This document shows, piece by piece, positions 1 to 5,347 of a stretch of DNA of 5,347 nt. Positions within the stretch are counted from its first letter, which is position 1. Every line of letters begins with the position of its first letter. This stretch comes from a virus (lineage: Duplodnaviria; Heunggongvirae; Uroviricota; Caudoviricetes). The DNA lies in IMG/VR virus record IMGVR_UViG_2698536307_000017; one strand, given 5' to 3'. The notes beneath the pieces were generated by a model that saw nothing but the letters and a program-made list of their open reading frames with translations, did no database searches and had not been told where the DNA came from. Made by a program: the position numbers and the translations under genes.

Positions 1-93
1 CCTGGCACGGCTGGGACGGAAGTCGCTGTCGTTCTCAAAATCGGTGGAGCTGCATGACAAAGTCATCGGGCATTATCTGAACATAAAACACTA

Positions 94-189
94 TCAATAA
101 GTTGGAGTCATTACCGCTGTGAAGATGATGGGCATACATGATGCGAACAACCAGAACGCAACAAACAAAAACTGCAATGCGTTTTTCAT
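94..189 (-). CDS. hypothetical small hydrophobic protein (31 aa)
   Basis: Below the ORF-track length cutoff; found by hand. Minus-strand ATG at 189..187 is preceded by a perfect AGGAGG (plus 194..199) with a 4-nt spacer; stop TGA at 96..94. Translation [31 protein letters not shown] has one hydrophobic segment and a signal/lipobox-like LFASC. No homolog recognised. Confidence 0.3.
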
Positions 190-727
190 TATTCCTCCTA
201 CAATCAATGTGCAATTACATTTAAACACACCTCAATTTGGCCGGACATATAAATATCTAAACCAGAAAAAATCACTTACATAGCGTTACAAACTCTTTAG
301 TCTAAAGGTTCATCGTAAAACATTCCCCATACTTATCAGTCCGTTCCGCGCCAGGTAGCTCATTGCCTTATCTGGCAACCTGTAATCAGGTTTCCGCTTT
401 TTCAGTTGGCTGGTCGTTTAACCGACATAGTTAATCCATTAATCTAGTTGCCGGATGTTGGTGGATTTTCGCGTTTTAGTTGTTCATAAAAGTGCACAGC
501 TTTAACCAGTTCTTCTGATGTAACTGGGACTGGTGAGGCAGTGAATAAGGCCTGAATTTGATAGTTCGGCCTGTCGTTACAATCCTCTTTTTTCGGTACA
601 TATTTCCAGTCACCAGACCACTACTTCCCCTGAAAGTCCGTAACGCCTTTTTTCACGTAGCGATATCGCCATGCCACTGGTTTTGCTTGCCCCGCCGTTT
701 CATGCCCTTCCTGATAATTAATCTCGC

Positions 728-1079
728 TCATTCATCGCCCCACTCATCACAATATGCTTCGACCGGAGTTTTTCCCGCTTCATAGTCATCACGCTAGGAT
801 TCGACATCAGCAGCACTTCCACCGCGTAACTCACCATAGTCCATTAATAGTTCATCCCGCTCTTCAAAACTGATGTTATATTTAGCTGAACAAAAATCAG
901 CCACTTTGTTCTTCCTCATCGTCTTTTATTTCGTGGTATGAGTAATTGCAGTAGTTAAAGAAAATTTCTTATGCTCCGTCATGAATTTCCTCAGGTGTTG
1001 CGTCATCGTCCACTTCGAATACATCCTCAAAATCTCCACCAGCTATTCCCGTTTCAATAATAATTTTGAACTTTCGCAT
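728..1079 (-). pseudogene. decayed remnant of an acidic protein-coding gene (fragments in two frames with internal stops)
   Basis: Hand translation of the minus strand. Frame A: ATG 1079..1077, MRKFKIIIETGIAGGDFEDVFEVDDDATPEEIHDGA, TAA at 971..969, then sense codons EIFFNYCNYSYHEIKDDEEEQSG to TGA 899..897. Frame B: MRKNKVADFCSAKYNISFEERDELLMDYGELRGGSAADVES from ATG 919..917, TAG at 796..794, then RDDYEAGKTPVEAYCDEWGDE to TGA 730..728. The same acidic composition in both frames suggests one ancestral ORF broken by a frameshift and nonsense codons. Confidence 0.3.
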
Positions 1080-1086
1080 TTCACTA

Positions 1087-1102
1087 CCGCCCTTTCGGGC
1101 GG
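1087..1102 (-). promoter_or_regulatory. GC-rich stem-loop (CCGCCC-GAAA-GGGCGG on the minus strand) between an AGGAGG and the ATG at 1079
   Basis: Perfect 6-bp G/C stem with a 4-nt loop. On the minus strand the order is AGGAGG (1108..1103), hairpin (1102..1087), 7 nt, ATG (1079..1077). No U-tract follows on either strand, so it is not a canonical intrinsic terminator. Confidence 0.3.
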
Positions 1103-1211
1103 CCTCCTGATGTTCTGAGGGTGCAGAAATCCATCCGGTTAAGGATTAAATTTTATTTACAGAACTGAATTTAATTATTCAGATATACGTATCTGTAGCC
1201 TTACGAATCTA

Positions 1212-1265
1212 CTCACTGGATGCCTCTTTCATAAAAATAATCCAGTGGGTTTTATCGTTTTTTCC
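1212..1265 (+). terminator. putative plus-strand intrinsic terminator-like hairpin with T-tract
   Basis: Stem 1212..1221 (ctcactggat) pairs with 1240..1249 (atccagtggg), 10 bp with one G-U pair, 18-nt loop. It is followed by ttttatcgttttttcc (1250..1265). The large loop lowers confidence. Confidence 0.3.
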
Positions 1266-1303
1266 CTGTTCGTTGACAGATAACAGGTTTTCTGTCTGTC
1301 AGT

Positions 1304-1316
1304 GCCAGAATCTGGC
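1304..1316. repeat. 13-bp perfect palindrome GCCAGAATCTGGC, with nearby short inverted repeats (TGACAG at 1274..1279 / CTGTCA at 1296..1301)
   Basis: Read directly from the sequence; lies immediately 3' of the methyltransferase-like ORF stop. Function unknown; could be a protein-binding site or part of a terminator. Confidence 0.6.
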
Positions 1317-1341
1317 TTACCGGTATTTGCGTTTCATTCCA

Positions 1342-1698
1342 TTAAAAAATCAGAACGCCGTGCGGCCTCAACACCCGAAAGGCTTCTTTAAATCTCTGTC
1401 GCGAATCATCACGCCAGGCATCTTTATTCAGCCGTCCATATTTCTTTCCCATCCAGGCGTTATCACCAACACTCTCAAGATGCGGAGGGTCTAATACAAC
1501 CATCGAAAAAGATGCGTCTGCAAATGATAATGCACGAAAATCTGCGATAATGTCAGGGCTGATAATCAAGCGTCTCCCATTGCGTAATGTGTATCCTTCT
1601 TTTCTGATATCGCTGAATATCGCCCGTTCGTCAGACTTATCGAACCAGAACATGCGGCTGCCACAGCACATATCAAGAATGGTTGCCGGTGCACTCAC
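1342..1698 (-). CDS. class I SAM-dependent methyltransferase-like protein (amino-methyltransferase type, DPPH motif), short and probably truncated or decayed
   Basis: 118-aa ORF from the track. Motif I-like ILDMCCGSR (aa 7-15), acidic end of strand 2 (AIFSD), motif IV tetrapeptide D-P-P-H (aa 70-73, nt 1480..1491), then FRVLRPHGVLIF. Start is GTG at 1698..1696, overlapping the upstream ORF stop as GTGA. It is too short for a complete methyltransferase fold; after TAA 1344..1342 the frame stays open for 29 more sense codons to TAA 1254..1252. Confidence 0.5.
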   Translation of the reverse strand: MSAPATILDMCCGSRMFWFDKSDERAIFSDIRKEGYTLRNGRRLIISPDIIADFRALSFADASFSMVVLDPPHLESVGDNAWMGKKYGRLNKDAWRDDSRQRFKEAFRVLRPHGVLIF

Positions 1699-1961
1699 TG
1701 CGCCACGTCCTGAAAATTACCCTGATAGAAAGCCAGTATGCGCTGCATAACTTCGCTCTTCCGGCACTCGCGACAGATTATGTTTAGGCGACTGTCGTAG
1801 CGACGTATTTCTCCGTCAGGTGATGACCAGATAAGGTCCGGATCAACCACAGCAGGTTTCTTCACCTTTGCCCTCGAGAGTTTTTTGCGGGCGTTTTGCC
1901 AGTCCTTACGCGCCTGTTCAGAGGGGAATAACCCGTATCCGGAGCTTAAGTTGCACGCCAT
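1695..1961 (-). CDS. hypothetical protein (88 aa from ATG 1961, or 56 aa from GTG 1865 with a GAGGG Shine-Dalgarno)
   Basis: ORF-track ORF whose stop overlaps the methyltransferase GTG start by 4 nt. ATG 1961 has no Shine-Dalgarno; the in-frame GTG at 1865..1863 has GAGGG 5 nt upstream. No motif recognised beyond a single CxxC (CRECRK). It may instead be the frameshifted N-terminal part of the methyltransferase. Confidence 0.3.
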   Translation of the reverse strand: MACNLSSGYGLFPSEQARKDWQNARKKLSRAKVKKPAVVDPDLIWSSPDGEIRRYDSRLNIICRECRKSEVMQRILAFYQGNFQDVAQ

Positions 1962-2019
1962 TGGGTGGGTTAAGCATAAATGTATTCCTGGTGCTAAATG
2001 GCCCGAAATTCAGGCAGAG

Positions 2020-3918
2020 ATGCGCATCTGGAAAAAACGTCGCGAAGGTGAACGCAAGGAAACCGGAAAATACACGTCTGTTGTTGATCTCGCCCGCGCC
2101 AGAGCCAATCAACAGTACACTGAAAATTCAACAGGAAAAATCAGCCCGGTCATTGCTGCCATTCATCGCGAATACAAGCAGACATGGAAAACACTGGATG
2201 ACGAACTGGCCTACGCTCTCTGGCCTAGTGATGTGGATGCCGGAAACATTGACGGCAGCATCCATCGCTGGGCAAAAAAAGAAGTTATCGACAACGACCG
2301 CGAAGACTGGAAGCGTATCTCGGCATCAATGCGCAAACAGCCTGATGCCCTTCGCTACGACCGCCAAACTATTTTTGGCCTTGTCCGTGAGCGTCCGATC
2401 GACATTCACAAAGATCCCGTAGCACTGAACAAATATATCTGCGAATACCTGACGACAAAGGGCGTGTTTGAGAATGAAGAAACAGACCTGGGCACTGTTG
2501 ATGTTCTCCAGTCATCAGAAACACAAACTGATGCAGTGGAAACTGAGGTATCTGATATCCCAAAAAATGAAACCGCGCCGGAAGCTGAACCATCTGTAGA
2601 GCGTGAGGGGCCGTTCTATTTCCTCTTCGCAGATAAGGACGGAGAAAAATACGGTCGCGCAAACAAACTCTCTGGTCTGGATAAGGCACTGGCTGCTGGC
2701 GCCACTGAAATCACAAAAGAAGAATATTTTGCCCGAAAAAATGGCACATACACGGGCTTACCGCAAAATGTAGATACCGCTGAAGATTCAGAACAACCAG
2801 AGCCGATAAAAGTTACCGCTGACGAAGTAAACAAAATTATGCAGGCAGCCAATATCAGCCAGCCTGACGCCGATAAGTTGCTTGCTGCATCACGTGGTGA
2901 ATTTGTTGAAGGGATTAGTGACCCGAATGATCCGAAATGGGTTAAGGGGCTCCAGACCCGCGATTCTGTGAACCAGAACCAGCATGAATCGGAACGGAAC
3001 TACCAAAAAGCGGAACAAAACAGTCCAAATGCGTTACAAAACGAGCCAGAAACGAAACAGCCTGAACCAGTAGCGCAACAGGAAGTGGAAAAAGTCTGCA
3101 CCGCCTGCGGTCAGACCGGCGGCGGCAACTGCCCTGATTGTGGCGCGGTGATGGGCGACGCAACATACCAAGAAACATTCGATGAAGAGTATCAGGTTGA
3201 AGTTCAGGAAGATGATCCGGAGGAAATGGAAGGCGCTGAACATCCACACAAGGAGAACACTGGCGGCAATCAGCATCACAATAGCGATAATGAAACTGGC
3301 GAGACGGCAGATCACCCAATTAAGGTGAACGGTCATCACGAAATCACATCCACCAGCAGGACGTGTGACCATCTAATGATCGACCTTGAAACCATGGGAA
3401 AAAATCCTGATGCCCCGATCATCTCAATAGGTGCAATATTTTTCGATCCGCAAACCGGAGATATGGGACCGGAATTTAGTAAGACTATCGATCTGGAAAC
3501 TGCTGGCGGAGTCATTGATCGGGACACCATTAAATGGTGGCTTAAGCAATCACGCGAAGCGCAATCTGCCATTATGACCGATGAAATCCCGTTAGATGAT
3601 GCACTGTTACAATTGCGAGAATTTATCGACGAAAACTCCGGTGAATTTTTTGTTCAGGTTTGGGGAAATGGAGCCAACTTCGACAACACGATTTTGCGCC
3701 GTTCATACGAACGGCAGGGGATCCCCTGCCCGTGGCGTTACTACAACGATCGCGATGTACGCACAATCGTTGAGCTGGGGAAAGCCATAGACTTCGATGC
3801 CAGAACGGCTATTCCATTCGAAGGTGAGCGCCATAATGCACTTGATGACGCCCGTTACCAGGCAAAATACGTTTCAGTTATCTGGCAAAAACTGATCCCG
3901 AGTCAGGCTGATTCTTAA
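2020..3918 (+). CDS. RecE-like (exonuclease VIII N-terminal-like) protein fused to a C-terminal DEDDh (DnaQ-like) 3'-5' exonuclease domain
   Basis: Long ORF from the track (677 codons from TTG 1885). In-frame start candidates are TTG 1885, TTG 1951 (GGAG 6 nt upstream) and ATG 2020; I prefer ATG 2020 because the translation upstream of it is Cys/Trp-rich and not protein-like. The C-terminal domain (nt 3376..3915) carries all three DEDDh motifs: Exo I D-x-E in MIDLETMG, Exo II GNGANFD (3664..3684), Exo III H-N-A-L-D-D (3832..3849). Upstream are acidic linkers and a Cys4 knuckle C-x2-C-x7-C-x2-C (3097..3141). The segment DADKLLAASRGEFVEGISDPNDPKWVKG and the Cys cluster match my recollection of the RecE N-terminal region; this is unverified. 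Confidence 0.85.
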   Translation: MRIWKKRREGERKETGKYTSVVDLARARANQQYTENSTGKISPVIAAIHREYKQTWKTLDDELAYALWPSDVDAGNIDGSIHRWAKKEVIDNDREDWKRISASMRKQPDALRYDRQTIFGLVRERPIDIHKDPVALNKYICEYLTTKGVFENEETDLGTVDVLQSSETQTDAVETEVSDIPKNETAPEAEPSVEREGPFYFLFADKDGEKYGRANKLSGLDKALAAGATEITKEEYFARKNGTYTGLPQNVDTAEDSEQPEPIKVTADEVNKIMQAANISQPDADKLLAASRGEFVEGISDPNDPKWVKGLQTRDSVNQNQHESERNYQKAEQNSPNALQNEPETKQPEPVAQQEVEKVCTACGQTGGGNCPDCGAVMGDATYQETFDEEYQVEVQEDDPEEMEGAEHPHKENTGGNQHHNSDNETGETADHPIKVNGHHEITSTSRTCDHLMIDLETMGKNPDAPIISIGAIFFDPQTGDMGPEFSKTIDLETAGGVIDRDTIKWWLKQSREAQSAIMTDEIPLDDALLQLREFIDENSGEFFVQVWGNGANFDNTILRRSYERQGIPCPWRYYNDRDVRTIVELGKAIDFDARTAIPFEGERHNALDDARYQAKYVSVIWQKLIPSQADS

Positions 3919-3929
3919 TGTTCAACTGT

Positions 3930-3961
3930 CGCCGGTTGTGACTGGTATTCTGCAACCGGCG
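3930..3961 (+). promoter_or_regulatory. stem-loop in the exonuclease-xis intergenic region
   Basis: cgccggttg (3930..3938) pairs with caaccggcg (3953..3961): 9-bp stem, 14-nt loop, 12 nt after the exonuclease stop and 30 nt before the xis ATG. No T-tract follows, so it is not a classical terminator. Confidence 0.3.
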
Positions 3962-3990
3962 CTCGTCTGATGTAAGAGATAAAGAAATCG

Positions 3991-4242
3991 ATGAGCGAAG
4001 TAATCATGATTGTCTCTCCCGGCAAATGGGTATCCGAAGAGCAGTTAATTGCGCTGAAAGGAATAAAAAAAGGTACGTTAAAAAAGGCCCGGGAAAAATC
4101 GTTTATGGAAGGAAGGGAATATAAGCATGTCGCTCATGACGGTATGCCATGGGATAACAGTCCATGCTTTTACAACCTGGAAGAAATTGATCGCTGGATT
4201 GAGCGCCAGGCATCAGCGAGACCAAGACGTCATCTTACTTGA
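3991..4242 (+). CDS. xis: excisionase-like protein (lambdoid prophage putative Xis, DUF1233-type)
   Basis: 83-aa ORF immediately upstream of and co-directional with the integrase. Small basic protein with the GREY...W...EEIDRWI pattern I associate with putative excisionases of Rac-type prophages. The assignment rests on position and pattern memory. Confidence 0.65.
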   Translation: MSEVIMIVSPGKWVSEEQLIALKGIKKGTLKKAREKSFMEGREYKHVAHDGMPWDNSPCFYNLEEIDRWIERQASARPRRHLT

Positions 4243-4276
4243 CTAAAAGCCACACTAACTAATGAGAGAAGTTGAA

Positions 4277-5335
4277 ATGAAATATCCGACAGGCGTGGAA
4301 AACCATGGAGGGAAATTACGTATCTGGTTTGTTTATAAAGACGTAAGAGTCAGGGAAAATCTGGGGGTTCCTGACACAGCAAAAAACAGGCGCGTTGCAG
4401 GTGAACTACGCTCCTCTGTTTGTTACGCAATAAAAACTGGTGTTTTCGACTATGCAAAACAGTTTCCCTCCTCACGCAATCTGGAAAAATTTGGTGAGGC
4501 CCGACAAGATTTAACCATAAAAGAACTGGCTGAAAAATTTCTGGCACTGAAAGAAACTGAAGTCGCCAAAACATCACTCAACACATACCGTGCCGTCATC
4601 AAAAATATCCTGAGCATAATCGGTGAAAAAAATCTTGCCTCATCGATTAATAAAGAAAAATTACTGGAGGTTCGTAAAGAGTTACTGACTGGATACCAGA
4701 TCCCCAAAAGTAACTATATTGTTACACAACCAGGGAGATCGGCTGTAACTGTAAATAATTACATGACAAATCTTAACGCCGTGTTCCAGTTTGGTGTTGA
4801 TAACGGTTACCTGGCAGATAATCCGTTTAAGGGGATCTCGCCATTAAAGGAATCAAGAACCATTCCGGATCCTCTTTCGCGGGAAGAATTTATCCGTCTT
4901 ATCGATGCGTGCAGAAATCAGCAAGCAAAAAATTTATGGTGTGTTTCTGTTTATACTGGAGTTCGCCCTGGTGAGCTGTGTGCACTTGGATGGGAGGACA
5001 TAGATCTGAAAAATGGAACAATGATGATCAGGAGAAATTTAGCAAAAGACCGTTTCACGGTACCAAAAACACAGGCGGGAACCAATCGGGTCATTCATCT
5101 TATTAAGCCAGCAATCGACGCTCTCCGGAGTCAGATGACATTAACGAGACTGAGCAAAGAGCATATCATTGATGTTCACCTCAGAGAGTATGGCAGAACA
5201 GAAAAACAAAAATGCACCTTTGTTTTGGAAGGTGCGAATAAGCAGGTCATTTCTTCCCAAGCTGACTCGCTGATTAAAATTTCTCGGATCTGGGCCGATT
5301 TTTTTCCCGCAAACACATCGAATCAGCCTATTTAG
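4277..5335 (+). CDS. int: phage integrase (tyrosine recombinase, lambda-type with N-terminal arm-binding domain), apparently C-terminally truncated
   Basis: N-terminus MKYPTGVENHGGKLRIWFVYKDVRVRE is an arm-type DNA-binding domain as in IntR-like integrases. Core box YTGVRPGELCALGWEDIDL holds the conserved Arg; the beta-hairpin Lys lies in VPKTQAGTNRVIHL. The ORF stops at TAG 5333..5335 with no HxxR, second His or catalytic Tyr. The track ORF starts at ATG 4262; ATG 4277 has a purine-rich GAGAGAAG upstream and matches the usual start of the family. Confidence 0.8.
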   Translation: MKYPTGVENHGGKLRIWFVYKDVRVRENLGVPDTAKNRRVAGELRSSVCYAIKTGVFDYAKQFPSSRNLEKFGEARQDLTIKELAEKFLALKETEVAKTSLNTYRAVIKNILSIIGEKNLASSINKEKLLEVRKELLTGYQIPKSNYIVTQPGRSAVTVNNYMTNLNAVFQFGVDNGYLADNPFKGISPLKESRTIPDPLSREEFIRLIDACRNQQAKNLWCVSVYTGVRPGELCALGWEDIDLKNGTMMIRRNLAKDRFTVPKTQAGTNRVIHLIKPAIDALRSQMTLTRLSKEHIIDVHLREYGRTEKQKCTFVLEGANKQVISSQADSLIKISRIWADFFPANTSNQPI

Positions 5336-5347
5336 GCTATTTTTTCC

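Follow-up and report, generated by a model that had tools for sequence, protein, structure and literature searches.

A Qin prophage integrase gene very probably split by an ISKpn26-like insertion sequence in a draft Escherichia coli genome

Disruption by insertion sequences (IS) is a standard route by which cryptic prophages lose their integrases. Without the second Arg of its active site, the His and the Tyr nucleophile, a tyrosine recombinase is unable to cleave DNA. In E. coli K-12 MG1655, the integrase end of the Qin prophage has the order ydfE' – IS2E remnant – intQ' – ynfP – rspB – rspA, and intQ (b1579) is damaged at its 5' end: an IS2E remnant, contained together with intQ in 7844-9709 of the segment compared, replaces the first ~121 nt of the gene and also truncates ydfE. 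Qin excision has not been detected in K-12, where intQ is regarded as inactive (PMC3105296), and intQ mutations are reported to be common among Qin prophages (PMC6379469). The IS5 family, to which the element described below belongs, includes IS5 itself, whose usual target is YTAR (PMC5009759).

The DNA analyzed here, referred to as the window, is a stretch of 5,347 nt that ends shortly after an integrase ORF. Exact look-up of the 352-aa product of this ORF shows that the window is the whole of CYBN01000134.1, a 5347-bp contig in E. coli draft assembly GCA_001284465.1. The submitter's product name is 'defective integrase; Qin prophage', and the defect is in this sense already known from the deposit. 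The locus has the layout of the Qin integrase end: the integrase gene lies next to rspB/rspA and is preceded by xis and a ydfE-type exonuclease gene, whose product in the window matches PF27432 (YdfE_C). There is little doubt about the nature of the defect: a single ISKpn26-like IS is very probably inserted into codon 317 of the Qin integrase gene, flanked by a 4-bp TTTT duplication.

The ORF runs on the + strand from the ATG at 4277 (an alternative ATG is at 4262) to the TAG at 5333-5335. Its product matches PF12167 (Arm-DNA-bind_2) over the full profile, positions 1-65 (E 3e-22), and contains the Arg box TGVRPGE (R230) and a Lys in VPKTQAG (K264), in agreement with an earlier note, made from the sequence alone, that had recognized an arm-binding N-terminus, the Arg box and the Lys. 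The SAM-like core-binding profiles PF13102, PF14659 and PF24624 score 19-21 bits, with cut-offs of 22-27. The Phage_integrase profile PF00589 is matched at positions 4-86 of 172 only, as compared to positions 4-165 in an intact homologue and in the reconstructed gene described below. The truncation is a deterministic feature of the sequence, and chance is not at issue.

The catalytic residues were placed by alignment of the intact protein to the Tn1549 Int (PDB 6EMY/6EN0). K264 is aligned with the Lys of PKTQSG, YQSR (356-359) with the HAMR box, GH (381-382) with GH, and Y392 with the tyrosine nucleophile. In this integrase type, the box that the earlier note sought as HxxR therefore reads YxxR. 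Since phage PhiR42_1 has the identical protein and three other phages have nearly identical ones, the Tyr in place of the first His is a feature of a phage integrase and not a sign of decay. Y356-x-x-R359, H382 and Y392 all lie C-terminal to residue 316 of the intact protein, so they are missing from the window ORF, which, as had been proposed, ends before the catalytic C-terminal residues. The complete catalytic set (Arg, Lys, (H/Y)xxR, His, Tyr) is absent from the polypeptide encoded in the window and present in that of the reconstructed gene.

The point at which the integrase sequence ends was located by megablast of window 4262-5347 against 5426 complete E. coli genomes. Thousands of matches to genes annotated 'site-specific integrase' were obtained; the top matches are 100% identical, and all of them end at query base 965, which is window position 5226. 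The uninterrupted gene is 1281 nt long and encodes 426 aa. In a three-way alignment, the window equals the intact gene through ...ACCTTTGTTTT and then changes to GGAAGGTGCGAATAAG..., whereas the intact gene runs on as TCAACCTGAAGTG past the breakpoint at 5226. The segment 4277..5226 (+) is thus the 5' part of an IntQ-type integrase gene, codons 1-316 plus 2 nt, 100% identical to intact genes; according to Pfam and the alignment, it encodes Arg230 and Lys264 together with the arm-binding domain and a putative core-binding region. The segment 5227..5335 (+) is an IS-encoded read-through tail made up of the last base of codon 317, 35 codons and the TAG. In the protein, ...CTFVLEGANKQ... of the window replaces ...CTFVFQPEVS... 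of the intact integrase. Only residues 1-316 are shared with the intact protein; the final 36 residues (LEGANKQ...NQPI, codons 317-352) and the stop are foreign, encoded by IS DNA. The earlier placement of the end at TAG 5333 is right for the stop, after which 12 nt of the window remain; the integrase sequence itself is over at 5226.

The foreign segment, 5227..5347, belongs to an ISKpn26-like insertion sequence of the IS5 family, of which it is the first 121 nt; it is 100% identical to annotated ISKpn26-family ends and opens with the left terminal inverted repeat GGAAGGTGCGAATAAG (5227-5242). Used alone as a query, 5227-5347 matches 2842 records, both chromosomal and plasmid, and frequently more than once in a genome; identity is 100% in many cases and at least 99% in 1276 E. 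coli records. In many E. coli genomes, elements that end in this sequence are annotated 'IS5-like element ISKpn26 family transposase'. In annotated copies, the transposase gene, encoded on the opposite strand, begins 27 nt inward of the 121-nt end; it is accordingly expected beyond the window, on the minus strand. Complete reference copies are 1195-1196 bp long, with 16-bp terminal inverted repeats (GGAAGGTGCGAAYAAG) and 4-bp target duplications (TTAA, CTAA, TTAA); those with identical ends encode a 326-aa transposase that matches DDE_Tnp_1 (E 1.6e-35).

The left boundary of the contig is of a similar kind: positions 1..115, read directly, are the terminal 115 nt of an IS1 copy ending in ...GTTGGAGTCATTACC. 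The identical junction in strains SCPM-O-B-9504 and SCPM-O-B-12142 has an annotated IS1A transposase directly upstream, and window 1..5226 differs from SCPM-O-B-12142, the closest complete genome, at 0 positions, IS1 junction included. Both contig ends are explained by breaks within repeated IS, as would be expected of short-read assembly.

A simple insertion makes a prediction for the sequence beyond the IS. The ORFs that it should create at the right-hand junction, given a 4-bp duplication, were looked up as exact sequences. When built with the C-terminus of strain 300709 (H386), they have 0 exact matches in the protein collection. The integrase of SCPM-O-B-12142 is one C-terminal codon apart (Q386 vs H386), and once Q386 is used, exact sequences exist for three of the predicted fusion ORFs, of 134, 125 and 123 aa. 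The 125-aa ORF lies on CYBN01000091.1, another contig of GCA_001284465.1, the assembly from which the window comes. This contig begins with 83 nt of the other IS end, followed by TTTT and then TCAACCTGAAG... to the integrase stop; the sequence after TTTT is TCAACCTGAAGTG... through that stop. On it are the 331 nt of integrase sequence that the window lacks (YxxR, His and Tyr; 110 codons), a fragment that matches PF00589 at positions 101-165. Past the integrase stop come full-length rspB (339 aa), rspA, ynfA, ynfB and speG. Two possibilities raised in the earlier note are thereby separated: the gene does continue beyond an insertion, and it does not continue in another frame, the DNA after 5226 being IS and the rest of the gene being on CYBN01000091.1.

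The two contigs fit together. The 16-bp terminal inverted repeats (GGAAGGTGCGAAYAAG) are found at both IS ends, at window 5227-5242 and at CYBN01000091.1 68-83; the IS is flanked on either side by TTTT, at window 5223..5226 and at CYBN01000091.1 84-87; and both IS ends (121 nt and 83 nt) are 100% identical to one annotated copy. When window 1..5226 is joined to CYBN01000091.1 after removal of the IS end and of one TTTT copy, the product differs from the uninterrupted locus of SCPM-O-B-12142 by 1 mismatch in 9345 nt, and the reconstructed locus encodes a 426-aa integrase identical to that of this strain. Both junctions, the duplication and the exact restoration of the gene upon removal of the IS are thus directly visible. 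The left junction recurs in assembly GCA_001285785.1 and the right junction in GCA_001286285.1. A 100-nt junction probe is covered to at least 80% in 0 of the 5426 complete E. coli genomes; the interrupted allele is therefore rare.

The integrase 3' fragment has also been annotated as a gene of its own. On CYBN01000091.1 (14-418), the IS end supplies in-frame ATGs, and the fragment is annotated as a separate 125-aa 'integrase', or one of 134 aa in GCA_001286285.1; 15-24 N-terminal residues of these predicted products are IS-encoded.

The target has one peculiarity. The uninterrupted gene has TTTTT at this site, and the two junctions together have 9 T; YTAR, the usual IS5 target, is not found. 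Among 12 other sampled ISKpn26-like copies, YTAR is present on that flank in 11 and CTTG in one. YTAR is a preference and is not required for membership of the IS5 family. The TTTT target is the sole detail of the insertion that is unusual, and only slightly so; the chance that it reflects a less strict target choice in ISKpn26-like elements than in IS5 is slender.

Taken together, the data fit a short sequence of events. One IS5-family ISKpn26-like copy of ~1195 bp very probably transposed into codon 317 of the integrase gene, duplicating TTTT. The resulting ORF consists of 316 integrase codons followed by 36 codons of the IS end, up to the TAG encountered there. The short-read assembler was unable to cross the repeated IS, leaving a contig that stops 121 nt into it. 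The other 110 codons, which encode the second Arg of the active site, the His and the Tyr nucleophile, lie intact beyond the IS on another contig, before rspB/rspA. The 991 bp between the IS ends would, on this account, make up one complete single IS.

Several other explanations predict an ORF that ends early near a contig end. The earlier note named a T7 homopolymer as a plausible frameshift site, and a frameshift or sequencing error there could truncate an otherwise continuous integrase gene; the run does sit just 30 nt upstream of the stop. Its actual position is 5299-5305 (not 5300-5306), inside the IS and outside the integrase gene: integrase homology is over at 5226, 73 nt before the run, the 121-nt IS end that carries it is unchanged in 11 of the 12 sampled IS copies, and the missing coding sequence is found behind the other IS end on another contig. 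The probability left to this explanation is practically nil, and the truncation is not an artefact from which error correction would recover the same reading frame; it is real in the genome. An assembly chimera, a junction nonexistent in the cell, would be a natural suspicion for a contig that terminates in a repeat, where assemblers can mis-join sequences. It is barely credible given that the left junction is also present in a second assembly, the right junction in another, and a proper target duplication is common to both.

A deletion adjacent to an IS deserved more serious consideration. In two related strains, rspB contains an ISKpn26-like copy that has the same orientation as here. A resident copy of this kind (as in SCPM-O-B-9504) could have deleted everything from its own position to the middle of the integrase gene, with loss of the integrase 3' end from the genome, which would also account for a junction without the usual YTAR target. 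However, in the same assembly the 3' part of the gene adjoins the other IS end by way of a matching TTTT, and a full-length 339-aa rspB follows it; the deletion was ruled out once the 3' fragment and full rspB had been found in the same assembly and is now extremely improbable. Reconstruction of the locus from both contigs therefore excludes the deletion, frameshift and chimera explanations. Finally, the IS ends could belong to a composite transposon with cargo, or to two IS copies set apart by rearrangement, because the 991 internal bases of the IS, or anything else that might separate its ends, are on neither junction contig. A matching 4-bp duplication, correct orientation of the ends and colinear flanks fit a single insertion, and there is no hint of cargo; a composite or rearranged insertion is very unlikely. 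The insertion of a single ISKpn26-like element into codon 317 remains by far the best account of the locus.

As the earlier note suspected, the gene copy in the window is inactivated, its product having no catalytic C-terminus; the split gene as a whole presumably yields no active recombinase. An excisionase gene precedes it: 3991..4242 (+) encodes an intact 83-aa product with a match to Pfam DUF1233, putative excisionase (E 1.6e-31), and RefSeq names an identical sequence 'excisionase family protein'. Despite this intact gene, the Qin remnant of this strain is probably unable to excise by means of its own integrase. There is a slender chance that the split gene is not simply a dead pseudogene. 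Judging by sequence, translation from in-frame ATGs of the IS could yield the C-terminal catalytic 110 aa within a 125-134-aa peptide of its own; the 352-aa N-terminal product, with its arm-binding and putative core-binding parts, could act as an att-site binder or a dominant-negative partner; and the two integrase pieces could complement one another as a two-piece recombinase.

The prophage around the gene is itself decayed. In SCPM-O-B-12142, the region upstream contains ydfT, ydfU, rem, hokD, relBE, flxA and ydfW, and is broken by IS3, an ISNCY fragment and IS1, with several pseudogenes. Where other strains have sequence identical to the window, RefSeq treats two of its genes, those for the DUF977 protein and the ydfE-like exonuclease, as partial. 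These partial genes, the pseudogenes and the IS interruptions indicate that the prophage was cryptic already before the ISKpn26-like insertion. The proposal that loss of the integrase locks in the prophage is reasonable in principle, with the qualification that the element concerned was already a decayed cryptic prophage. Since it has no uninterrupted integrase gene, the Qin remnant, including the methyltransferase and exonuclease genes of the window, is probably a permanent part of the chromosome, barring precise excision of the IS or the action in trans of another integrase. The K-12 annotation closes Qin 37 nt past intQ, and the corresponding point is on CYBN01000091.1, outside the window. 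A tRNA 3' end had been suggested as a downstream landmark; there are 0 tRNA genes in the window and 0 in the 10.4 kb of CYBN01000091.1.

Several further features of the neighborhood were observed. The DUF977 ORF, 1695-1961 (-), and the ydfE-like 3'-5' exonuclease ORF, 1885-3918 (+), overlap head-to-head, and in both the RefSeq partial calls denote a missing N-terminus; this arrangement points to an old junction, left by a deletion or an inversion, near 1885-1961 and common to many strains. Two other window segments are pseudogenes in the RefSeq annotation of SCPM-O-B-12142, a further sign of prophage decay: 310-731 (-), a hypothetical protein gene with a frameshift and an internal stop, and 897-1079 (-), a DUF7167 gene with an internal stop. 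The rspB copies of the ISKpn26-like element have the target duplication TTAA in strain MMC-J-0020 (positions 4619-5813 of the segment compared) and CTAA in SCPM-O-B-9504 (positions 14441-15636 of its segment); they are at differing positions, and the neighborhood has been struck repeatedly by one IS.

This is a commonplace case of a prophage integrase knocked out by an IS and viewed across a contig break, with little significance beyond correct annotation. It does hold a lesson for draft assemblies: when an ORF ends near a contig end after a loss of homology, an IS terminal repeat should be checked for first.

The integrase of Escherichia phage PhiR42_1 has 100% identity to the reconstructed 426-aa protein; HannyBb, mEp460_ev081 and Tritos, which like PhiR42_1 are isolated lambdoid phages, have integrases with 99.1-99.5% identity to it. 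In all four records the integrase gene is uninterrupted. Prior to the insertion, the gene therefore encoded the same integrase type as these deposited, isolated phages. The earlier note had compared it to the IntR of Rac, likewise a tyrosine integrase of a lambdoid prophage, with, presumably, the same arm-binding N-terminus. The locus is that of Qin: the integrase is of the IntQ type and has the ydfE-like exonuclease gene and rspB as neighbors, and further upstream in the closest complete genome relBE, hokD, flxA and ydfW are also neighbors of the Qin type, contrary to an assignment to Rac.

Among gene-knockout insertions of IS5/ISKpn26, of the IS5 group of the IS5 family, in Enterobacteriaceae, the present one shares the GGAAGGTGCGAAYAAG repeat, the 4-bp duplication and 100% identical ends, and differs in its target, TTTT here and YTAR there. 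The K-12 MG1655 intQ is the same gene in the same chromosomal place, beside ynfP/rspB; it is 99.9% identical to window 4398-5226, and the match carries on into CYBN01000091.1. Whereas the K-12 gene is damaged at its 5' end, this strain has that end intact and an ISKpn26-like element in codon 317. The two events are independent: the same integrase gene has been struck once by IS2, in K-12, and once by an ISKpn26-like element, in this strain.
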